Positions 9,119-53,768 of a stretch of DNA of 64,000 nucleotides are shown one piece after another (position 1 is the first letter of the stretch; each line of letters starts with the position of its first letter). Below the pieces are notes generated by a model. It was not told where the DNA came from and did no database searches. It was given only the letters and a program-made list of their open reading frames with translations. Made by a program: the position numbers and the translations under genes. Location: assembly GCA_963666975.2 (NCBI GenBank), contig CAXVYR010000004.1:960001-1024000 (forward strand), in the 5' to 3' direction. The DNA comes from Terriglobia bacterium (GTDB lineage Bacteria > Acidobacteriota > Terriglobia > 2-12-FULL-54-10).

Positions 9119-10553
9119 TTACATTACTGGCACGGGAATTGACGGTGGCTCAAGAGGATGATGCTTGAATTGGTGTTCCTCGATAACTTGCCGATAAACG
9201 TCAATGTAATCTTGAACCATTCTGGCGAGGGAGAAGTTTTGTTGGATATGGCGGCGGCACGCGCGCCGGTCGATCGTATCGAGCCGCTCCAGCGAGGCGA
9301 CCATGCCATCCAGGGAATCTACCAGAAAGCCGGTTTCTCCGTCTACCACAATTTCCGGCAGGGCGCCCCTCTTCATCGCCAAAACGGGGGTTCCGCAGGC
9401 CATGGATTCGATCGAGACCAAGCCAAACGGCTCTCCCCACTGAATTGGAAACAGAGTGGCTATGGCATGCTGGTACCAATGCTTCTTTGCAGAGGTGTTT
9501 AATTCCCCAATGAAAATAACCTGCTTATCGCAGTCGACAAGGGGCTTGATCACTGAGCTGTAATAGTTCTTCCCGACCTCAAACTTGCTGACATCTACAA
9601 CCAAGTCGATAGAACCCCGTAGGGATTCAAAAAAGGCTTTGTCTTCCACCTTATTTTGCACAGACCCGGCTATGAAAAGCTTGCAACCGCTTTTCCGGGC
9701 AAGCTCAATGGCCTTGTCTTGTCCCTTGTCGGGGGTAATTCTCCCGATCGTGAATAGATAACCGTTTCCAATCGGTGCAGTCGACACGGGGAAGGTCTCC
9801 ACGTCGACTCCGTGGTGAATCACTCGATAGATATTTACCAGCGTGGAGTACTCTCGCTTTTGATGCTCACTAATGGCAATGAAATATACAGAAGGCTGCG
9901 GCTCGTATCCCGTTCCAGTGCTCAGAGACTTCATCGAGGCCGCTCTGCGTCGCGGGCACGTGCAGGGTGACGACGATGGGGAGGGGAGGGTTGAACACAC
10001 CATTGTATAAATGACGCACCCATTCGTGCATATGAACGACGTCGATATCCCCTCTCATCGCCCGTTTCAGGGTGTGAGTCAGATGGCTCAGCAGTAGTTC
10101 CTCTGATTCTTGGCCATCCTCCTGGCAATAGCCGCCAAAACCTTGACGAACCGTCACGTGCCTTTCTCCCACGGTTTGGGAGTCAGCGGAGCACGCCACG
10201 ATGGAGCGATGCCCCGCCGAGGCTAGCCCTTTGTCAACATTGCAGATTACTGTTTCGACCGGGCCATACCCCTGGTCAGGCCTGATAGCTTTATTCAAGG
10301 TGCCTACTTGCAAAACAGCTAGCTTATCGATCGCTTCTACTTTATCTGGGATACATTGTTTTCTGGGCCGAATAGCCGCGGGACCGATGCGTTGAGGGAT
10401 GTCCCCGGTGCAGTTGGAGGTCCTTGTGGGGATCCAAAGGTCATCCTCATCCATGCACTTGCTGCCCAGCCGGGACTCCATCCTGATGGCCATATCAACC
10501 AATCTTCCCATTTGTTGAACTTTTCTCCCGGACAAGCAGCATACATCAACCAC
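9119..10553 (-). pseudogene. Glycosyltransferase family 4, frameshifted
   Basis: The N-terminal part (VLQVG..PDQGYGPVE..GH..VHMH..VVTLH) lies in ORF 9870-10553. The C-terminal part (IAISEHQ..IHHGVD..IGRITPDKG..EPFGLVSIESMACGTPV) lies in ORF 9119-10003. The frames switch at about 9895-9915. True start uncertain. Confidence 0.8.
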
Positions 10554-42097: not shown

Positions 42098-44500
42098 TTA
42101 AAACCGGAATCTCAGGCCCATGGTGGCGACTTGCGTCTCTAGGAAGTTCTGGTAAAGCGCCGTGAAGCCCTGCCCGTCGATTTCATGCTCAACCGCGAAG
42201 TCGTTGAGGATATCGGTGAACGTGAACAGAAATACAGCGCGATCGTTCATGATCGGCCAACTGGCGGCGAGGTCGAGCGAAGAGCGTGCGCGCTCCCTGC
42301 CCTGGGGAACGTTGCGTTCCGCGTAGTAGATGTAGCTCAACTGAAGCTCCATCCCACGGGGTAACCGGATCTGGTTGTTGATCTTGAAATCCCAGGTGCC
42401 GTCCTTCGAGGCGGCCAGCGCGAACGGTCGCCGCGTGGGGAAGAACAAGGTCGTCTCAAGCGCGTCGATATTATTCTTGAACCAGTTGGCGCTGCCGGAC
42501 AAACGCCATGAGTTCCTGATCTGCTGTTCCAGGAGAACCTCGATCCCGGTCTGGGCGGAGTTGCCGGCATTCTCGAAGATCCGGTTGACGATGTCGTAGT
42601 TCGGGTTTGAGTCGTCAATGGCGAAAACGCGCAGGAACGAGTCCTTGATGTCCCGGTGGTAGAGAGCCGTGCTGATCGATCCGCGCTCCCACGAGCGAGC
42701 GAAGCCGAGCTCGACCGCGTTGGTCAACTGCGGCCGGAGAAACGGGTTGCCGACCTTGAGAATCTCCGGATCGTCGTACTTGGGAAAGATGCGCAGTTCG
42801 GGCTCGCCCGGCCGATCGATTCGCCGGTTGTAGGCGGCGATCAATCGATTCTTGTCGCTCAGCCGATAGGTGAGCTTGACGTTGGGAAAGACCTCGAAGT
42901 AGTCGTACTTGTCGCTGCCCTCGTAGTAGATGTTATCGTCTGGAACTGTGTAGGAGACGCCCGTCTGCTCGATGCGCACGCCGGCCTCCAGCGTGTAGGA
43001 GTTCTTCACTTGTACCAGGTTGCCGTACAGGGCAGCGATGTCCTCGTTCCAGTCGGAAAAATCACCAAGACCTTCGTAAATTACGCTTTGCACACCACGG
43101 TCCACCGCATAGGTGACGGGCAGCCAGCGCCGCTGAAGCTTCGTGCCGAGCTCGATCCGACCGCTGCTTAACGGGCGTTTGTAGTCGATGCTCAGCGGCA
43201 AAGTGTTTTCCTTGGCCACCAAGTGGGTCATGTCCGTGCCTTCGCGGACCCTCGAGACCTCGTTGAGAAAGTAGGCTTCGTCTTCCCAGCCGCGTGTGTA
43301 CTGGAGATTGACGATCAGCTCGTGCCCAGGTGTTCTGAATTCACGCTTCAGGTCGAGGCTGATGTTGGCAAAGCCCGTATCCTCCTGCTCCCGCCAGAAC
43401 CAGAAACGCTCTCGTTCGCCGGTGGACGCCAGGATGAAGGGGACCTGCGCACGGTCGGTATGCGTTTCAAAGTCGTAGATCCCTGAGATCGAGAGGGTGT
43501 TGGCGGCGCCGACTCTAAAGTCGGAGCCGAGTCTGACGATGTAGTGGGTCTGCTCGCGGTTCTCGGGAACCTGCGACTCGATGACGCGACCATCGTCATA
43601 GAAGCGAGTCGTGAACTCGTTGTTCGGCAAATCGTCCTGAACGAGGACCTCCGCTTGGACGAAGCTGCGCACCTTCTCCGTGTTGTAGTTCAGGCTCACG
43701 CTGGGGATGATCTTCTCGTTGTTGGAAAAGCTGCCGAGCTCGGTCGGTAGATCGGCGCGCTGTTTGGAGAACTGGCCTAAGCCGAAGGACAGGCCGACGT
43801 CTCCCGAGAAGCCCAGTTCTTGCTCCTTTTTGTAGATGATGTTGATGATCCCGGCCATTCCGGCGGCGTCAAAGCTTGCGGAGGGATTGTGGATGATCTC
43901 GATCGCCTCCACATTGGCGGCGGACACGCTGTCGAGTCCTCGCTGACTTCCGAAACCTGTCAGGCTCGACTGCCTGCCGTCGATGAGAATGGCGACACGA
44001 TCGCTGCCGCGAAGCGAGACTTTGCCTTCTTGATCGACCGTCACGCCCGGAAGGCTCTTCATCGCATCGAGCAGCGATCCGGTCGACTGGGCAGGTCCTT
44101 CGTCGAGCCGCACAACTTGGGTGTCGATCCCGGCCACCCGGATTGCGTTTGCGGTAACCGTAATCTCCTGCTCGAGGATCTCCTGACGAACGAGGCGGAT
44201 GTCACCGAGGTCGTAAGACTGGTTGAGTTCGGAGACGAGCACGTCGAACTCCGCAGGGAAAAACCCGCGAAACGACATGTGGATCGTGTGCTCGCCCGGC
44301 GCCAAACCCTGCACGAGGAAGCGACCGTCTTCGCCGGCAAGCACGCCGGACAGCGTCTCTCCGGACTCGGCGTTCTCGACCACCACCGTCGCGAAGCCGA
44401 TCGGGGAATCGTTGGTGATATCCAGCACGTGGCCGGAGAGGATCGCCGTGCCCTCTTGAGCCAAAGAGACCACCGGCAGGAGCAGGAGGATGAGAATCAT
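42098..44500 (-). CDS. TonB-dependent receptor (carboxypeptidase-regulatory, plug, beta-barrel)
   Basis: Signal-like MILILLLLPVVSLAQE; LSGHVLD..PIGFATV; LPGVTVD..SLRG..ILIDG; IEIIHNPSASFDAAGMAGIINII; GNPFLRPQ; terminal RFRF. The frame stays open upstream to 44854. Confidence 0.9.
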   Translation of the reverse strand: MILILLLLPVVSLAQEGTAILSGHVLDITNDSPIGFATVVVENAESGETLSGVLAGEDGRFLVQGLAPGEHTIHMSFRGFFPAEFDVLVSELNQSYDLGDIRLVRQEILEQEITVTANAIRVAGIDTQVVRLDEGPAQSTGSLLDAMKSLPGVTVDQEGKVSLRGSDRVAILIDGRQSSLTGFGSQRGLDSVSAANVEAIEIIHNPSASFDAAGMAGIINIIYKKEQELGFSGDVGLSFGLGQFSKQRADLPTELGSFSNNEKIIPSVSLNYNTEKVRSFVQAEVLVQDDLPNNEFTTRFYDDGRVIESQVPENREQTHYIVRLGSDFRVGAANTLSISGIYDFETHTDRAQVPFILASTGERERFWFWREQEDTGFANISLDLKREFRTPGHELIVNLQYTRGWEDEAYFLNEVSRVREGTDMTHLVAKENTLPLSIDYKRPLSSGRIELGTKLQRRWLPVTYAVDRGVQSVIYEGLGDFSDWNEDIAALYGNLVQVKNSYTLEAGVRIEQTGVSYTVPDDNIYYEGSDKYDYFEVFPNVKLTYRLSDKNRLIAAYNRRIDRPGEPELRIFPKYDDPEILKVGNPFLRPQLTNAVELGFARSWERGSISTALYHRDIKDSFLRVFAIDDSNPNYDIVNRIFENAGNSAQTGIEVLLEQQIRNSWRLSGSANWFKNNIDALETTLFFPTRRPFALAASKDGTWDFKINNQIRLPRGMELQLSYIYYAERNVPQGRERARSSLDLAASWPIMNDRAVFLFTFTDILNDFAVEHEIDGQGFTALYQNFLETQVATMGLRFRF

Positions 44501-44725
44501 GCTCAGCGACTTAGTGCGTTTTCTGATCCACCGACATGTTTCAACACCTTGCATACCTGGCATCATCCAGTCCAGAACTGCCAAGCGGGGAGCCTCCTCC
44601 TCTTGGAGGGTTTGCCAAGCCTCCTTACTGTTGCATGCACTAATCACCGCGTAACCCCACTTCTTAAGAAACATTTCCAATCGAAAATTCCAGTATGGCC
44701 TTCCGGCTGCTGTAATGATATTCAC
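44501..44725 (-). pseudogene. Truncated response-regulator receiver remnant in frame with the TonB receptor
   Basis: GTG at 44725 gives MNIITAAG..LKKWGYAV..EAWQTLQ..APRLAVLDWMMPGMQGVETCRWIRK. It lacks the acidic pocket and the C-terminal half of REC. Confidence 0.7.
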
Positions 44726-44777
44726 ATGGGCCTGAGTTGGAGCACATTTCTTGCCGCTTGAACTCCCTGTACTTTCA

Positions 44778-44858
44778 GCACATATCGGCACGGCAACGCA
44801 TGCGTCAATAATCAATTGACTGGGATTTTTACATAGTTCGCGTGTTTCCGACAAACAT
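44778..44858. repeat. 81-bp direct repeat, copy 2
   Basis: Matches 41887-41967; lies upstream of the REC remnant/TonB receptor. Confidence 0.93.
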
Positions 44859-46114: not shown

Positions 46115-46210
46115 CTTCGCAAGCCGGCCTGAAACAACAAAAGCCTTCCAGCGTCACCTGGAACGGTCCTCGTGATCGTGCAGACCAAGATTCACCGGAA
46201 GCCGCGCCAA

Positions 46211-46293
46211 TCCGAGCCGCGCGCGCCTGTCCCGCCTGCCCTGCCTGCCCTGAGCGAAGCCGAAGGGAGCGAAGCCAAGGGATCAGCAAGCGG
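46211..46293. repeat. Compound nested REP
   Basis: CCGAGCCGCGCGCG..TCAGCAAGCGG interrupted by CCTGTCCCG-CCTGCCCTG-CCTGCCCTG-AGCGAAGCCGAAGGG-AGCGAAGCCAAGGG. A similar copy is at 51433-51498. Confidence 0.8.
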
Positions 46294-46319
46294 ACCCATA
46301 CACCAGTTTTTCAACAACC

Positions 46320-46892
46320 TCTTAAAGACGGCTCAGGCGCTTGCCGATAGACCAAGTGAGGTTATTGAGATGGCGATTAGTATTTCATTCTCGGCGACAA
46401 GCCTGGAGTTTTCATTCCTGATTCGCCCGAATACGGAAGCAATCCTGCTCACCGAAGGGCCTGTGAAAGCCGAGCTTCTCACAGAGGAAGTGGAAGAAAG
46501 CGGAGAGTCGTCCGGGGAAGCACCCACGAAAGCAGAAGACCTGGGCGAAGAGCCATTAAGCTTCGCTGAACACGTAGCTTCTGCCGGTTTCCGCTCGCCG
46601 AGCACCCGCAACGCGCTCTACAAGTTGCACGATCGCCTCACGGACGGTCTGGATGGAGAGGCAGTCGCCGAAGTGGAAGCCTTGCTTGCCGAGGCGGTGG
46701 AGTTGGCCGGTGAGCTTGCCGCAGCCGATCAGCGACCGTTCGGCAGGAGCGTCGAACCAGCTCAAGCAGATATTCAACGTGGCCTCCAGACGCCATCCCG
46801 TACTCCCGGAACTCGCTCCTACCACGGAGCCCTCCTCTGAGCCCGCGCCCGATGACGGCGATCCGGCTCCCGCCCTGGACGTCGCCGTCTAA
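46320..46892 (+). pseudogene. Fragment of an unknown acidic protein gene, probably frameshifted
   Basis: Protein-like frame (LKTAQALADRPSEVIE..ELAAAD) begins right after an IS-like end (TTTTTCAACAACCTC). It appears to continue in a second frame (..NQLKQIFNVASRRHP..LDVAV*). Confidence 0.4.
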
Positions 46893-47036
46893 GACCGCTT
46901 GCCGTCTTTCTTACTTACTCTCTGGCTGATTCTGTGAACAGAATGGGGAATTGACTTCCGTGTGGCTGGGCTGTGCCGGCAGGGGCCGCGAATTCCTTTC
47001 ATGCGCGGCCAGCCTGCAGGCTGTTTCTTGATTAGA

Positions 47037-47963
47037 CTACTGCTGAATCTTCAGCGGAATATTGAGCAGCATCGGTTCGCCCGGCTTGGTCTCCAAGCGA
47101 TACATGGTTTGCGGAAGGGGCTCATCGTGCGTCAGCAGGCGTGTCCGGTCCGTGGCGGCTGCTTTCTCTGCTTTCGTGTAGGACTTGCCCGTTTGCCCCC
47201 GCGCCTCCAGGCGCTGGACTTTGGAGCCCCACCGTTTCTCCCAAGCCGAGACCTCGTCCTGTGTCAGCCGGAGCGGGTCGCGCCGAATCCTCAGGCCCGG
47301 CAGGGGATCGGGCGTCACCAGAATGGTCAGCACTTCCGCTGTCTGATCGGGCCGGCTCGTCCGCATGGAGAAGTAGCGCGGGCGGTCGTCCCAGGCGGGG
47401 ATTTCAATCAGACGTCCGGCCACCACTTCATTATTGCCGCCGTGCGTCCGCAGAGTGGGGAAGATCAGCAAGGGTGTGCCGAAGGTGCCGTCTGCGTACT
47501 GCTCCCGGTCGATCACATACAGGTAGCCGGAGCGGGCCGTCTCGATGCTGACCCGGACCTTCTGTCCTTCCAGCAGCGGGGTCTCAGCCTCGACGCGCTC
47601 CGGTGTCAATTCCCCTCCCCCGTCCAGGTCGGAGATGCGAATGTCTTTGTCGTCTTCCGGGAGGGAGGCGCGCAGGAGCCAGATGGTGATGCCCACCAAC
47701 GAATCGCCGGGGTCTTCTGCGCCCAGCTGTGGCGGCGAGGCCGCAGGGGGCATCGGCGCCGTCGTGGCAGTCGAAGGGGAAGCGGAGGCCGGTTTGGGCT
47801 CAGCGGGCCGCTTGGCGCGAAACGCCGTGTTCCACAGTTGCCGCGTGCGGTCTCCCGAGGACGTTTGCTGGGCTGCGGCGGGGGAATGTCCCCATACCAA
47901 TAGCAATACGAACGCCGCCAGTCCCAAGGTTCCGAAATCAACAAAGCTTGGTTTGTTTGTCAT
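47037..47963 (-). CDS. Secreted DUF4384-like domain protein
   Basis: Signal peptide (..VLLLVWGHSPAAAQQ), Pro/Ala linker, EGQKVRVSIE..SGYLYVID..LIFP..IEIP..EVLTILVT; RBS GAGG. Confidence 0.75.
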   Translation of the reverse strand: MTNKPSFVDFGTLGLAAFVLLLVWGHSPAAAQQTSSGDRTRQLWNTAFRAKRPAEPKPASASPSTATTAPMPPAASPPQLGAEDPGDSLVGITIWLLRASLPEDDKDIRISDLDGGGELTPERVEAETPLLEGQKVRVSIETARSGYLYVIDREQYADGTFGTPLLIFPTLRTHGGNNEVVAGRLIEIPAWDDRPRYFSMRTSRPDQTAEVLTILVTPDPLPGLRIRRDPLRLTQDEVSAWEKRWGSKVQRLEARGQTGKSYTKAEKAAATDRTRLLTHDEPLPQTMYRLETKPGEPMLLNIPLKIQQ

Positions 47964-48005
47964 AACTATGCCTCTTTTTGGTTTTCCAATCATTGGGGGA
48001 TCCAA

Positions 48006-50435
48006 TCAATGGTGCTCCAAATTCAACAACCTGACTAAAATATCGCCGTTCCCTTGGACGTTTGTCTGCTTGCGCACCTCATCTCGTTCCACAACGGAGG
48101 GCGATTCACTAAATTTCTCCAGAAGCGCCTGGATCGAGCTGGTCAGGTCCGGGTCGTCTACGACCCCCATATGCTCTGCATCGGCAAATTCCTTGACGGC
48201 CTCCAGTTCGGCAACGCTTTTGGCGGTCCAGATCATCCATAATTTTTCCGTCCCCGCCTGCTCGTCAAACTGTATCCAGTACTCTTGTTCGGCGGGTATC
48301 TGAATCCTCTGATCCGCAGTCAGCAAAGCCGGCTGGCCCTCGCCCGGAAACATGACGTTGTAGCTGGGCATTCCGGCTTGCAGCACCGGCCCTTCGTTGA
48401 GTATGTAGAGATATCCGGCTTGCGGGCTACTGATAACCAGGCGAATGGCATAGTCTGCCTCAAAGATGATTTCGCCCGGCAGCGGGAAGGGTTCCCGGAA
48501 GGGTTCTCCGTCCCGGTACCGCTGCACGATGATGGAGTAACTGAACATGCGATCCGGCACGGAAACTGCGGCAGGCGGAGCAAGCTCGGATGGGGCGGAT
48601 TGATCGGAGGACCGGTTGAAAATACCAATGCCGATTCCCGCCACGAGCAATACAGCAACGGCGATAGCAGCCGCGATGAGAGCCGGTTTCTTCTTGCTGG
48701 CCTCGGCGGCTCCGGCAGGGAGCTTCCCCCGGGTGGAGGCCTTCCGGCCTGCCGCGCCGGAGCGCATCTTCTGCGGTAATTCCCGGTTGCCTGCATCCTC
48801 CGTGCAGAGGTTAAAAAGGTGGACCCGCACGCCGTGCTTGACCTCTTGCTCTCCGAGGTCCTCGAGATGCGATGACCAATCACTCAGTTGTGCCAGGACC
48901 TCCGCCACGGAGCGGGAGATAATAATATGCCCCGCATCGCCCGAGTCCATGACCCGCTGGGCCATATTGATCCCGCCACCGGCCACGTTTCTGTTGGCAT
49001 TGATGTCCGCCACGCGGTACACGGGTCCGGTATGGACACCGATACGCAGCTTGATGTTGGGATAGTCCTTTAAGGAGCGGCTGACCTCGGTGGCGCATTT
49101 GACCGGCGCGACTGGATCGCGGAAAAACACCAGTGCCATGCCGTCTCCGGTCGGCAGCTTAATCAGTTCCTCGTTTTCCTGCGCGCGCTGGAATTCCTCC
49201 GAGCTGGAGATCACATCCTGCAGTTGCTGGAGATATTGCGTCTGGAGGTCCATCGGCAGCAGAGAGTAGCCTACGATATCCGTAAAAAGGATGTGGGCCA
49301 TCTCCAAGGCGGGTTTTTTGGAACCAGAGGAGGCGGCAACCGTCTTATGCTGCATGGGGGTGGTCGCAGCGAAGGCGCTCGGATCGGAAGAGGTCCCCCT
49401 CGGGAGGGTTTGCAGCATTTCTGCCCCGCCGGTCACGGCGCGGGCGAACTCGTCTCCCAAGTCCCGTGCGCGGGCGTGGCGCTGTTTGGCGTCGAAGGAA
49501 AGCGCCTTCAAAATGCAATCCTCCGCCGCCGGAGGCAGGCTGGAATGAAAGTCCCGCGGCTTTGCTTTGACCCCTTCCTGCTGCAGGACGTACAGTTGGG
49601 CCGGCGAGTCCGGGTTGAATGGCCGCCGCCCGGTGACCATCTCATAGGCGATGACGCCGAGAGAATAGATATCGCTGGCGCTAATGGGCTGCCCCAGGAG
49701 CTGCTCCGGAGCCATATAGGAGCCCGACCCGGCAACCCGCGTGGCCTCGGACCCCGCTGCCGCCTGCGATTCCATCACCGTGGCGATTCCGAAGTCGATG
49801 ATTTTCACCAGCTCCTCGCCGCCTCCCAAATTTTGCAGCATGACGTTTTCCGGCTTCAGGTCGCGATGATAAACGCCGCGGTCGTGCGCGGCGGTGAGCG
49901 CCTGGCCGATCCCTCGCACGATCTGCGCAATGCGCGAGAGGGAAACCTGCTGGCTCTTCATCACATCCCGCAGCGTCAGCCCGTCTACGTATTGCATCAC
50001 CAGAAAGGGCTTCCGGTCCGGCATTTCTCCGGCGTCCAGCACGCCCACAATTCCCGGATGGTCGATGCGCGAAAGAGCTTCTCTTTCCTGGCGGAATTTC
50101 TTGGTGAACCAGGCGCTGTCGGCCGATTGTTTTTCGAGCAGGACCTTAATCACCACCAACCGGGAGTGCAGTTGCTCGTCCCGCGCCAGATAGACTATGC
50201 CAAACCCCCCGCGCCCCAGTTCCCGCTCAATGCGGTAGCGGTCTTTGATTTTGGCTCCGCCGTACGGCTTCTCTTGCGGCAAAGGCGCGGTGTTGACGAC
50301 CTGAGTGGCTTCCGGGGTGACGGCGGCGGTGGCTTCGGTGGCGCCACCGGCAGCAACTTCGGTAGCGGCGTCAGCAGCAATGGTCTGCTCCTGGTCGCTG
50401 GGGGTCTTCTGGTCTGGCTGGCCATCTATCGGCAT
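48006..50435 (-). CDS. Ser/Thr protein kinase - class III nucleotide cyclase - TM - DUF4384-like protein
   Basis: Kinase: GRGGFG, VVIK, HRDLKPEN, DFG, YMAPE. Cyclase: ILFTDIVGYS, PTGDG, LRIGVHTGPV, GINMAQRVMD. TM: LIAAAIAVAVLLVAGIGIGIF. C-terminal IRLVISSPQAGYLYILNE..MFP..IQIP..GTEKLWMIW. Confidence 0.88.
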   Translation of the reverse strand: MPIDGQPDQKTPSDQEQTIAADAATEVAAGGATEATAAVTPEATQVVNTAPLPQEKPYGGAKIKDRYRIERELGRGGFGIVYLARDEQLHSRLVVIKVLLEKQSADSAWFTKKFRQEREALSRIDHPGIVGVLDAGEMPDRKPFLVMQYVDGLTLRDVMKSQQVSLSRIAQIVRGIGQALTAAHDRGVYHRDLKPENVMLQNLGGGEELVKIIDFGIATVMESQAAAGSEATRVAGSGSYMAPEQLLGQPISASDIYSLGVIAYEMVTGRRPFNPDSPAQLYVLQQEGVKAKPRDFHSSLPPAAEDCILKALSFDAKQRHARARDLGDEFARAVTGGAEMLQTLPRGTSSDPSAFAATTPMQHKTVAASSGSKKPALEMAHILFTDIVGYSLLPMDLQTQYLQQLQDVISSSEEFQRAQENEELIKLPTGDGMALVFFRDPVAPVKCATEVSRSLKDYPNIKLRIGVHTGPVYRVADINANRNVAGGGINMAQRVMDSGDAGHIIISRSVAEVLAQLSDWSSHLEDLGEQEVKHGVRVHLFNLCTEDAGNRELPQKMRSGAAGRKASTRGKLPAGAAEASKKKPALIAAAIAVAVLLVAGIGIGIFNRSSDQSAPSELAPPAAVSVPDRMFSYSIIVQRYRDGEPFREPFPLPGEIIFEADYAIRLVISSPQAGYLYILNEGPVLQAGMPSYNVMFPGEGQPALLTADQRIQIPAEQEYWIQFDEQAGTEKLWMIWTAKSVAELEAVKEFADAEHMGVVDDPDLTSSIQALLEKFSESPSVVERDEVRKQTNVQGNGDILVRLLNLEHH

Positions 50436-50646
50436 AAAGAACTCCGGCGGTGAACGGCTCTGAATCGACGGCGAAGCCTTCCCCACCTGGGGGGATATCT
50501 ATTGATAATAAATCTCTTCTGCAAGCTTGACAAGAGGGACATTCGTGATCTTCTGTTCGGTGTTGTTCTTTACAGCACGCCTCCAGTCTGCTATTTTGCA
50601 GTTTTAGTTCTCGCATCCTGGGTTGTAATGACTGAGGACTGTAAAG

Positions 50647-51361
50647 ATGCCCCTGTGGCAGACGCACTTATCCGCACTGATTACGCTACCTCGCCTTAAA
50701 ATCGCCGCCGGCAGCCTCCTGTGCCGGGCGGTCATTTTCGGACTAATAACGCTTCTTTGTTTGGCTGTTCCTTCCTTGTCCCGCGCGCAGGGCGTCATTT
50801 CCACGGCGGCGGGCACCACCTGGAGCTTTTTCGGCGATGACGGTCCGGCCATACTTGCCTCGCTGGATGGCCCTACCAGTGTGGCGGTAGATGCGGCTGG
50901 CAACATTTTTATCGCTGACCGGAATAATAACCTTGTCCGCAAAGTCGGCGCCGATGGAATCATCACCACTGTGGCGGGCAACGGGGATTTCTCCTTCGCG
51001 GGAGACGGCGGCCCGGCCACCGCCGCCTCGCTCGATCCCCAGGGCGTGGCGGTCGATGCGGCCGGCCAACCGCGGGGAGTTTCTTTCGATCTTCTGCACT
51101 GGACTGGGAGCGGTAACGAACCCGCCGGCGAGCGGAGCCGCGGCAGCAGGCGATCCGCTGTCGGAGACGATGGCGACCCCGGGCGTAACGATTGAAGGCG
51201 TTCCGGCGACGGTAACGTTCTCCGGGCTGGCGCCGGGCTTTGTGGGGCTCTATCAGGTGAACGTGGTGATTCCCCAGGAAGTCTCTTCTGGCCCGGCGGT
51301 CCCCCTGATACTCACCATCAGCGGCGTCCCCTCCAATGCCGTGACTATTGCGGTCGAGTAG
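50647..51361 (+). pseudogene. Internally deleted NHL-repeat / Solibacter C-terminal domain (TIGR03437-like) gene
   Basis: Signal peptide and about 1.5 NHL repeats (GDGGPATAASL..VAVDAAG) jump out of frame at about 51060 into PANRGE..IFCTGLG..FSGLAPGFVGLYQVNV..SNAVTIAVE*. Confidence 0.8.
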
Positions 51362-51838: not shown

Positions 51839-52548
51839 ATGAGCGCTTGTTTGCGTTATTTGTTGTTTGGGATTTTATGCTTGGTGTTGTTGTCAACACA
51901 GGCCTCCGCCCAGGAAATACTCTGGGAAACGCATAACGAAGAAGGCAACCATTCTTATCAGCAGGGCAAGTATGCCGAGGCGGAGAAGCAATTCTTAGCT
52001 GCCTTGCGAGAAGCGGAAAAGTTTGGGTCAGCGGACCGTCGTCTGGCCAGGGCCTCACCAGCCTGGCAACACTCTACCGCACACAGGGCAAATACAACGA
52101 CGCAGAGCCACTTTACCAGCGGGCATTGGAGATTGACGAAAAGGTTCTGGGGCCGGAAGACACTCAGGTAGCTGCGGAACTCAACAACCTGGGGGTACTC
52201 TACCACGCCCAGGCCAAATACTCCGAGGCCGAGGCGCTCTACCGGCGGGCTCTGCGGATTGACGAGAAGGCCATGGGGCCGGATCATCCCAGCCTGGCCA
52301 CAAACCTCAACAGCCTGGCTTTCCTCTACCATGACCAGCGCAAGTACGCCGAGGCCGAGCCGCTTTATCGGCGGGCATTGGCGATCATCGAGAAGGCCGT
52401 GGGACCGGACCATCCCAAGGTGACTGCGACCTTGGAGAGCTACGCCGCCTTGCTACGGAAGACGAACCGGGAGTACGAGGCGTTGAAAATGGAGGCCCGC
52501 GCCAAAGCCATCCGTGCCATGCACGCGCAGCAGAATCCAGCCAAATGA
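51839..52548 (+). pseudogene. Secreted TPR-repeat protein, frameshifted
   Basis: Signal peptide and YQQGKYAEAEK; an apparent 1-bp loss at about 52050 (RLA^GLTSLATLYRTQGKYNDAEPLYQRALEIDEK); three kinesin-light-chain-type TPRs follow. Confidence 0.8.
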
Positions 52549-53025: not shown

Positions 53026-53768
53026 TTGCGGGAGCAGCCAGACCGCACGCTGGTGGAGTTGCAGCAGGGGTTATGGGAAGCCGAGAGGGTGCACTTCAGT
53101 ATTCAGCATCTGTGGCGACGGCTCCGGCGGATGGGCTTGCCGCTAAAAAAAGTCGCTCCGCGCCCAGGAGCAAGACACGCCGGAAAACCGGGAGCGCCGC
53201 AAGGCGTGGCAGGAGCAGAGCCAGCTGATGGATCCCCGGCAATGGGTGTTTGTGGACGAGAGCGGCGCGACCACGGAGATGACTCGGCGCTACGGTCGTG
53301 CGCCCCGCGGGGAACGGGTGCGGGAAGCTACGCCCGCCGGCCGCTGGAGCACGCTGACGCTTCTGGGAGCGATGAGCACCGAGGGATGGTTGGCGACCCT
53401 GACCGTGGAGTCGCCCACCGACGGAGATGTCTTTCTGGCTTACCTGGAACACGTGTTGTGTCCCCGGCTGGAACCGGGCCAGATCGTAGTCATGGACAAC
53501 CTGGGGGCGCATAAAGTTCAGGGAGTCCGAGAACTCATCGAAGCCACCGGAGCGAAACTGATGTACTTGCCGCCGTACTCGCCCGACTTCAACCCGATTG
53601 AACCATGCTGGGGGAAGGTGAAACAGAAGCTCCGTTCGCTGAAGGCCCGCACCGTGGACGCGCTGCAGGAGGCGATCTCCGAAGCCATCGCCACGATCAC
53701 CCCCAACAACGCCTCCGCCTGGTTCGCCCATTGCGGCTATGATCTACACTAACAGGAGAAATGCTCTA
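53026..53768 (+). mobile_element. IS630-family element, 5'-truncated
   Basis: [20 protein letters not shown], then a +1 shift at CTAAAAAAAG into [37 protein letters not shown] (DDE). Right end ..AAATGCTC-TA. Left end and N-terminal HTH are missing. Confidence 0.9.

Follow-up and report, generated by a model that had tools for sequence, protein, structure and literature searches.

Do two adjacent bacterial genes, one encoding a transmembrane receptor that joins a protein kinase to a nucleotide cyclase and the other a secreted protein with a domain of the same type as the outer part of that receptor, belong to one signalling unit, and is the arrangement found elsewhere? The question is raised by a 64,000-nucleotide stretch of DNA from a Terriglobia bacterium of the phylum Acidobacteriota (assembly GCA_963666975.2, contig CAXVYR010000004.1, positions 960,001 to 1,024,000), referred to here as the window, in which the two genes occupy positions 47,037 to 50,435. 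The analysis of the receptor gene (gene A), the partner gene (gene B) and their relatives leads to the conclusion that receptor and partner constitute a real, widespread and uncharacterised signalling module. The pair in the window is the minimal form, receptor plus partner, of a wider modular family in which the combination of kinase and cyclase is a minority inner module.

Domain organization of the two gene products

The features of the pair are as follows.

48006-50435, minus strand: gene A, 809 amino acids with no internal stops, including the TGA stop at 48006-48008 (coding part 48009-50435)
49476-50237, minus strand: Hanks-type Ser/Thr kinase domain, residues 67-320 (PF00069, E 2.1e-46)
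48801-49304, minus strand: class III cyclase homology domain, approximately residues 378-545 (PF00211 and alignment to 1ybt)
48618-48689, minus strand: predicted single transmembrane helix, approximately residues 583-606, preceded by KKK (read from the sequence)
48009-48575, minus strand: outer (extracytoplasmic) domain, residues 621-809, composed of a beta-sandwich and a small alpha/beta part, with a conserved C-terminal LEHH (AlphaFold2 model, PF14326 and alignment of 31 outer domains)
47964-48005, minus strand: intergenic spacer of 42 nucleotides with an AAGAGG ribosome-binding site (from the sequence)
47037-47963, minus strand: gene B, 308 amino acids, stop included (coding part 47040-47963)
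50505-50533, minus strand: promoter-like site TTGTCA-17-TATTAT, 10 of 12 positions as in the consensus, about 70 nucleotides upstream of the gene A ATG

From its N-terminus the gene A protein comprises a Hanks kinase, a class III cyclase, one transmembrane helix and a DUF4384-type outer domain. The open frame, the Pfam matches and the positions of the motifs agree, and confirm the fusion of these parts in one intact gene that a preliminary description of the locus had reported. The kinase scores well above the curated cut-off of PF00069 (158.9 vs 31.7 bits). The hallmarks of Hanks kinases are a glycine-rich loop, the VAIK lysine, the HRD aspartate, the DFG aspartate and the APE motif, and gene A keeps all of them: GRGGFG at residues 74-79, K97, HRDLKPEN at 190-197 with D192, DFG at 214-216 with D214, and APE at 242-244. 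The positive-inside rule places the KKK flank of the transmembrane helix on the cytoplasmic side, which would leave the kinase and the cyclase in the cytoplasm and residues 621-809 outside. Gene A is thus predicted to encode a single-pass membrane protein with the kinase and cyclase domains inside and the DUF4384 domain outside. A low-complexity linker of approximately 45 residues joins the cyclase to the membrane helix. At the extreme C-terminus of the receptor (48009-48020, minus strand), the sequence L-E-H-(H/Q/R) is nearly invariant among the 31 aligned outer domains and could be a recognition or processing tag.

The AAGAGG of gene B sits 7 nucleotides ahead of its ATG. The protein starts with a hydrophobic signal sequence (residues 1-31, ending at an AAA-QQ junction), continues with a conserved TRQLWNT.F..KRP helix (36-52) and a variable Pro/Ala linker, and ends with a conserved DUF4384-type body of about 225 residues (85-308). 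The ribosome-binding site, the start codon and the signal sequence bear out the earlier claim of an intact signal-peptide gene 42 nucleotides downstream of gene A. The two genes lie in one frame, with a single TGA between LEHH and the next open reading frame (ORF), and on that ground could be taken for one gene split by a nonsense codon. This explanation is hardly credible and was rejected: gene B has start signals and a signal peptide of its own, gene A ends like its relatives at the family-wide C-terminal LEHH/LEHQ, the relatives show variable gaps or whole genes between receptor and partner, and the partner is also found alone.

Kinship of the outer domain and the partner

Compared with each other directly, the two proteins are weakly similar (BLASTP E 0.021). 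Alignment of a profile of 31 outer domains with a profile of 29 partners by hhalign gave a probability of 97.3% and an E-value of 2.6e-11 over 97 columns. The DUF4384 profile PF14326 is found at E ≤ 0.01 in 29 of 29 partner relatives and in 24 of the 31 outer-domain relatives, the best E-values being 8.5e-08 and 3.3e-10, respectively. For the window proteins themselves, against a cut-off of 27 bits, the same profile scores 22.9 bits on the whole of gene A, 25.8 on its outer domain alone and 27.2 in the genome scan, and 19.3 and 21.9 bits on gene B. The domain signature that had been noticed in both genes is upheld by the profile alignment: the two DUF4384 cores are homologous, and gene B is, as judged from these profiles, a secreted paralogue of the outer domain of gene A.

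Structure models were of good quality for both, with a mean predicted local distance difference test score (pLDDT) of 86.3 and a predicted template modelling score (pTM) of 0.79 for the partner, and a pLDDT of 89.8 and a pTM of 0.86 for the outer domain. Each AlphaFold2 model shows a beta-sandwich followed by a small alpha/beta part. A Foldseek search of the PDB with the partner model returned nothing at E ≤ 0.001, the top entry being RhoGDI2 at 1.8e-02. The wide VIA-align search gave a top Z of 6.7 for both models, where a Z under 8 is uninformative; the top matches were filamin C (7ouu) for the outer domain and the AGS-C domain of EcPycC (9ard) for the partner. Both domains are read from the models as generic immunoglobulin (Ig)-like sandwiches, and kinship with the Pycsar AGS-C domain is not claimed.

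Conservation of the pair across Acidobacteriota

Relatives are numerous. At E ≤ 0.001 there are at least 3451 for residues 370-809 of gene A and at least 3439 for gene B, and among 1.84 billion representatives at 50% identity the partner accounts for 1456, 863 and 554 clusters at E ≤ 1e-3, 1e-10 and 1e-30, respectively. Gene order was compared in two samples. The partner-seeded sample consisted of the best 80 loci of 218 genome stretches that encode a partner relative, almost all labelled Acidobacteriota. A gene with the outer domain lies upstream of the partner on the same strand in 46 of these 80 loci, which fall into the following classes.

Adjacent, less than 600 bp upstream on the same strand, 18 of 80 loci: 7 with kinase and cyclase, 1 with cyclase only, 7 with kinase only, 1 with TIR (L006), 2 cut by the locus end
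Spaced, 2.9-5.2 kb upstream on the same strand, 28 of 80 loci: 22 with a kinase as sole module, none with cyclase, and 6 truncated by the end of the locus
No outer-domain gene found, 34 of 80 loci: 15 of them with under 5 kb of upstream DNA

In the receptor-seeded sample, residues 371-809 of gene A were compared with 401 sampled genomes of the phylum, and the partner profile was run on the same 401. Receptor matches were present in 23 genomes and partner-profile matches in 21. Of the 28 non-self outer-domain matches, 27 have a partner no more than 10.5 kb away on their own contig and strand, and the lone exception (in G201) is 1.2 kb from a contig end; beside non-self cyclase matches that lack the outer domain, a partner was found in none of five cases. 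Because of this difference, the partner can be said to follow the outer domain, one for one and irrespective of the inner module, and not the kinase or the cyclase. Three genomes (G137, G362 and G386) have three outer-domain and three partner matches each, while G034 and G290 (weakly) and G221 (strongly) have partner matches and no outer-domain match with this query. The window pair, with the partner downstream on the same strand across a gap of 42 nucleotides, has the arrangement sought in both samples. The pair is therefore kept elsewhere, in 27 of 28 receptor-seeded and 46 of 80 partner-seeded cases. Its two genes are inherited together throughout Acidobacteriota, and a genome often holds several paralogous pairs.

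Pairwise divergence was compared in the 26 loci where the kinase, the outer domain and the partner are all complete. The correlation was 0.82 between outer domain and partner, 0.72 between kinase and partner, and 0.63 between the kinase and its own outer domain. With the kinase held constant, the partial correlation of outer domain and partner was 0.67 (permutation p 0.001, with related sequences that are not independent). Such co-divergence is no more than suggestive of a functional or physical link between receptor and partner. For the contact between the two DUF4384 domains that the preliminary description proposed, it would be indirect support, as would the one-to-one linkage of paralogous pairs.

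Variation of inner modules and exported neighbours

The inner module carried by receptors with this outer domain varies and may be a kinase, a kinase with a cyclase, a cyclase or a TIR domain. In one locus (L006:4763-5905), TIR_2 (E 8e-12) with a DUF4384 outer domain stands in place of kinase and cyclase, and a partner gene follows directly. A paralogue of gene A lies about 110 kb from the pair (G000:C4:1119873-1120619; locus L105, 946-3198, minus strand). It is a 750-residue protein composed of kinase, cyclase, transmembrane helix, Pro-rich linker and a C-terminal helical part (coiled coil); its cyclase is 57-68% identical to that of gene A, and it has neither a DUF4384 domain nor a partner gene.

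An ORF tally of the immediate upstream neighbour of the partner in the 80 loci gave 29 TPR-CHAT genes, 16 receptors, 10 WD40 genes and 16 others, the remainder being 4 locus edges, 3 genes on the opposite strand and 2 loci without a called partner ORF. The TPR-CHAT and WD40 proteins bear signal peptides. In many Blastocatellia loci one of these exported genes, TPR-CHAT or WD40, separates receptor from partner, and the order kinase, small ORF, TPR-CHAT gene and partner was seen. The small ORFs that recur in Blastocatellia between receptor kinase and TPR-CHAT genes encode about 125-180 amino acids (often near 130), have no Pfam match and are sometimes doubled; examples are L025:710-1729, L042:2308-2688, L075:789-1214 and L076:220-1325. 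No CHAT or sigma-factor gene lies beside the window pair, and no extracytoplasmic-function sigma gene was found upstream of the adjacent-class receptors, where the upstream genes are unrelated. Of the two-gene unit first proposed, the pair itself stands; the unit is wider than had been described, as the inner module varies and a gene for an exported caspase-like protease lies between the two in other lineages.

Partner-type bodies also occur as parts of larger proteins. They form the C-terminal part after a TIR domain (P0233, P0316, P0391), a cyclase (P0305), a kinase (P0320, P0370, P0216), a calcineurin-like phosphoesterase (P0397), TPR (P0339) or WD40 (P0326). The fusions to kinase, cyclase, TIR and phosphoesterase modules show that a body of the partner type can act as a receptor domain in its own right; those to TPR and WD40 link it to the repeat types of the exported neighbours.

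The cyclase domain

PF00211 (Guanylate_cyc) matches gene A with 35.2 bits (35 in the genome scan; cut-off 21.9). Residues 456-535 are matched to profile positions 95-172 of 183, and the phmmer alignment to solved cyclases extends over approximately residues 379-536. The nearest solved chains are the cyclase domain of Rv1900c/LipJ (1ybt, E 9.9e-09) and Ma1120 (4wp9, E 1.8e-06). Residue roles were assigned by alignment to 1ybt together with general knowledge of the family, and conservation was assessed across gene A and 119 aligned relatives (n=120), where it is highest in the cyclase region of the protein. Invariant throughout are the metal-binding D386 (in FTDIVGYS) and D431 (in TGDG), the transition-state residues N490 and R494 (in GINMAQR) and K533 (in VKHG).

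The positions that specify the substrate are occupied by L427 and N483, both likewise invariant in the alignment, and the canonical pair is absent. In known cyclases this purine-specifying pair is Lys/Asp for ATP and Glu/Cys for GTP, as two published accounts state (PMC1262709, PMC4215837). The two positions bear on substrate specificity and not on membership of the class III fold. Because Leu and Asn replace Lys/Asp or Glu/Cys, the product of the gene A cyclase is not predictable, and the domain is probably active with a nucleotide preference that cannot be foretold from its residues. The genome holds three cyclase-domain genes and three genes with a cyclic nucleotide monophosphate-binding domain, and on account of the latter, possible receivers of a cyclic nucleotide are present.

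Proposed mechanism and alternative explanations

About even credence is given to the interpretation of the pair as a two-gene operon that encodes an envelope-sensing receptor together with the periplasmic partner cognate to it. The operon signals consist of the promoter-like site before gene A and the ribosome-binding sites; a consensus scan of 46300-51000 found 5 promoter-like sites vs 1.4 expected, as pattern matches only. In the proposed mechanism, the partner would act on the receptor outer domain in the periplasm, by direct binding or by presenting a ligand, and this would change the oligomeric state of the receptor. The cyclase is tethered to the membrane by a floppy linker of about 45 residues, which makes proximity or dimerisation a more probable signal than a rigid helical push. 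Hanks kinases are activated by trans-autophosphorylation and the active sites of class III cyclases form at the dimer interface. Dimerisation would presumably allow the first and assemble the second, two-subunit site, so that the outputs would be phosphorylation and a cyclic nucleotide.

Several observations weigh against this interpretation. The fold searches, made with predicted models, give generic Ig-like matches and nothing on function. The cyclase is non-canonical at both substrate-specifying positions and its Pfam match is partial. No outer-domain gene is seen in 19 of the partner-seeded loci although their upstream DNA reaches 5 kb or more; at L017 and L019 the upstream genes are Lon, GTPase and Rho, so that the partner can stand alone. 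Judging from its fusions, the partner may sense independently and not serve the receptor as a ligand. The mirror-tree correlation can stem from shared periplasmic rates or from shuffling of kinase modules, with no contact between the two proteins. Receptor and partner are separated by a further exported gene in 28 of the 46 linked loci (TPR-CHAT or WD40 where identifiable), and the main associate of the partner may be the product of this gene, which is absent beside the window pair.

This last point leads to an explanation in which the partner does not contact the receptor and the two are clients of a third, likewise exported component, as its substrates, adaptors or co-sensors. Elsewhere this component would be the TPR-CHAT caspase-like protease or the WD40 protein, and the form in the window would be a reduced remnant or the user of an unlinked protease. 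The frequency of TPR-CHAT (29 of 80) and WD40 genes (10 of 80) immediately upstream of the partner, the signal peptides on both neighbour types and the fusions of the partner-type body to TPR and WD40, a Rosetta-stone hint, all fit such a role, and the genome does contain one TPR-CHAT gene, on another contig. That gene, however, is the only CHAT gene of the genome, is unlinked and seems to be N-terminally short (644 amino acids, with TPR from residue 3). Moreover, in 18 loci, including all 8 with a cyclase, receptor and partner are adjacent with no protease, the genes upstream of these adjacent receptors are unrelated (ABC transporter, oxidoreductase, FBPase, Tricorn protease, TonB receptor), and the outer domain co-diverges more tightly with the partner than with its own kinase. 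The third component is the main alternative, considered possible but less likely than the operon of receptor and cognate partner.

A different doubt concerns the output. The cyclase-like domain might form neither cyclic AMP nor cyclic GMP and serve as a dimerisation scaffold for the kinase, or act on another substrate such as a pyrimidine nucleotide, in which case the idea of two outputs would be wrong or incomplete. The Rv1900c cyclase, the nearest solved relative, is weak and asymmetric and has unusual specificity residues; with the invariant Leu at the Lys/Glu position, the invariant Asn at the Asp/Cys position and the restriction of the Pfam match to profile positions 95-172, this agrees with an atypical role. 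The invariance of the metal-binding Asp pair, the Asn, the Arg and the C-terminal Lys in all 120 sequences suits catalysis better than a scaffold. In addition, proteins with cyclase, transmembrane helix and outer domain and without a kinase exist (L009), and 17 of the 120 listed relatives are shorter than 560 amino acids; because such kinase-less proteins exist, the cyclase can be the sole inner module. A scaffold or a different substrate is thus considered unlikely.

More speculative is a role in conflict. Hanks kinases, nucleotide cyclases and TIR domains are types that recur in anti-phage and programmed-death systems, and the DUF4384 domain with its secreted paralogue might serve a conflict or cell-fate system as a portable sensor for envelope surveillance, firing whichever inner effector is attached. 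Such a sensor would respond to an event outside the cytoplasm, for instance an attack on the envelope, contact with a phage or a signal from kin; exported caspase-like proteases might take part by cleavage, and the kinase-cyclase of the window might then make an unusual nucleotide signal. This proposal is regarded as a long shot, and the operon of receptor and cognate partner is retained as the working interpretation.

Comparison with known systems

Animal receptor guanylyl cyclases, such as the atrial natriuretic peptide (ANP) receptor, are likewise single-pass proteins with a kinase-type domain and a dimeric class III cyclase, and ANP receptor chains weakly match the cyclase part of gene A (E 9e-04). 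Their order is outer domain, transmembrane helix, kinase homology domain and cyclase, whereas in gene A it is reversed, with kinase, cyclase, transmembrane helix and outer domain. The kinase domain of the animal receptors is a pseudokinase; gene A, unlike them, keeps all the catalytic motifs. Their outer domain is unrelated and they have no secreted paralogous partner. The likeness pointed out in the preliminary description holds for the presence of a kinase-type domain beside a cyclase, and is superficial in view of the order of the parts, the retained catalytic motifs of the kinase and the linker of about 45 residues. In LuxP-LuxQ and TorT-TorS, a co-encoded periplasmic protein modulates the outer domain of a membrane sensor; the sensors are histidine kinases and the periplasmic proteins have unrelated binding-protein folds. 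The logic is alike, with the difference that the partner of gene A is a paralogue of the sensor domain itself.

The TOMM kinase/cyclase fusion (TIGR03903) also combines a Hanks kinase with a cyclase-like domain, but gene A does not belong to it: the score is 147.3 against a cut-off of 705.75 bits, and the match involves the kinase part only (residues 93-331) of a model of 1267 positions. Nor is gene A a PASTA kinase (PknB/Stk1, NF033483; 264 against a cut-off of 450 bits, kinase part only). No NCBIfam model passes its cut-off for gene A, LipJ scoring 35 bits against 800, and gene B has no match in that collection. In PADLOC, gene A matches generic kinase models only (PD-T4-6, mad6, PglW), with no Pycsar or CBASS cyclase match, and the partner matches nothing. 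The ESM Atlas gave only a cluster of the protein's own kind (Guanylate_cyc 92%, DUF4384 17%, Acidobacteriota), other rows reaching 0.84, below the threshold for a lead. Two database entries flagged as the window's own (P0003 and P0132) are shorter, at 544 and 220 amino acids, and differ from the window by TGDD for TGDG at the metal motif and by one extra Lys in the partner. At both discrepancies the window sequence matches close relatives, and these gene calls may come from another, more error-prone version of the assembly.

Rv1900c (LipJ) and Ma1120 share the metal motifs FTDIVG and GDG with gene A; they are soluble or fused to a lipase and have no kinase, transmembrane helix or outer domain. 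The specificity positions of Ma1120 are Lys/Asp (PMC4215837). The closest precedent in layout is Pkn2 of Myxococcus xanthus, described in 2005 as a kinase with an adenylyl/guanylyl-cyclase-like domain, a transmembrane helix and approximately 200 outer residues of unknown type, and cited there as having experimentally shown kinase activity (PMC1262709). On that description, Pkn2 has its parts arranged as gene A has, and its specificity positions are given as Glu/Thr (PMC1262709), as opposed to Leu/Asn in gene A. No match named Pkn2 appears among the 28 listed matches of the outer-domain profile to longer proteins, all of which are kinases with or without a cyclase. Fusion of DUF4384 to bacterial kinases is mentioned in a 2025 preprint (10.1101/2025.01.12.632604), and fusion to proteases or orthocaspases in two other papers. 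A literature search, outside which subscription papers and supplements remained, found no printed account of the pairing of receptor and partner and no experiments on a kinase-cyclase-DUF4384 receptor, its cyclase or its partner. The initial statement that no characterised system has this architecture was therefore too strong, as the combination of kinase, cyclase and transmembrane helix was in print in 2005 (PMC1262709).

Genomic surroundings

Long ORFs make up 88% of the window and belong mostly to ordinary housekeeping families (rbfA, truB, mutS, clpB, hemA/hemC, ilvD, zwf, selB). The picture of a region full of pseudogenes applies locally, to apparently broken or fragmentary genes mainly at 50.6-53.8 kb, just upstream of gene A, and does not apply to the ordinary remainder of the window. 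The following features were recorded around the pair and further away.

46172-46837, plus strand: acidic 222-residue ORF, convergent with the partner gene, no Pfam match, its DNA conserved in L002 (alignment to 46343)
50647-51361, plus strand: what is left of an NHL-repeat gene, its two frames overlapping (182 and 156 amino acids; alignment to L002)
51839-52548, plus strand: TPR protein in two frames (110 amino acids with a signal-like start; 140 amino acids with strong TPR_12), a frameshifted gene or an assembly error
53026-53752, plus strand: IS630-like transposase in two overlapping frames (162 amino acids without Pfam match; 174 amino acids, DDE_3), a programmed frameshift or a broken copy
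42101-44854, minus strand: TonB-dependent receptor gene, whose longest ORF opens with an in-frame Response_reg fragment (residues 59-122, profile 14-76 of 111) ahead of the receptor's own signal peptide
9122-10553, minus strand: glycosyltransferase in two overlapping ORFs (Glyco_transf_4 part, then Glycos_transf_1 part)

The closest relative of the locus, L002, has approximately 91% DNA identity over 46343-50309. It contains an NHL-repeat gene of at least 1131 amino acids that is divergent from the kinase gene, and about 0.7 kb of this NHL gene is left in the window. An NHL-repeat gene adjoins the receptor in 5 of 8 cyclase-bearing loci (L002, L005, L009, L013 and L064). The Response_reg piece before the TonB-dependent receptor looks like a truncated regulator gene that is read through.

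Implications

Most bacterial Hanks kinases have no known signal, and sensing in Acidobacteriota, a dominant soil phylum, is almost unstudied. A very large receptor family with a dedicated, co-evolving secreted partner offers a concrete experimental handle on both. Its modularity is clean: one outer sensor pair is combined with kinase, cyclase, kinase plus cyclase or TIR outputs, and optionally with exported caspase-like proteases. The kinase-cyclase form seen in the window stands out as rare, since one receptor could give both phosphorylation and a cyclic-nucleotide signal, the latter through a cyclase whose specificity residues differ from those of known adenylyl or guanylyl cyclases.

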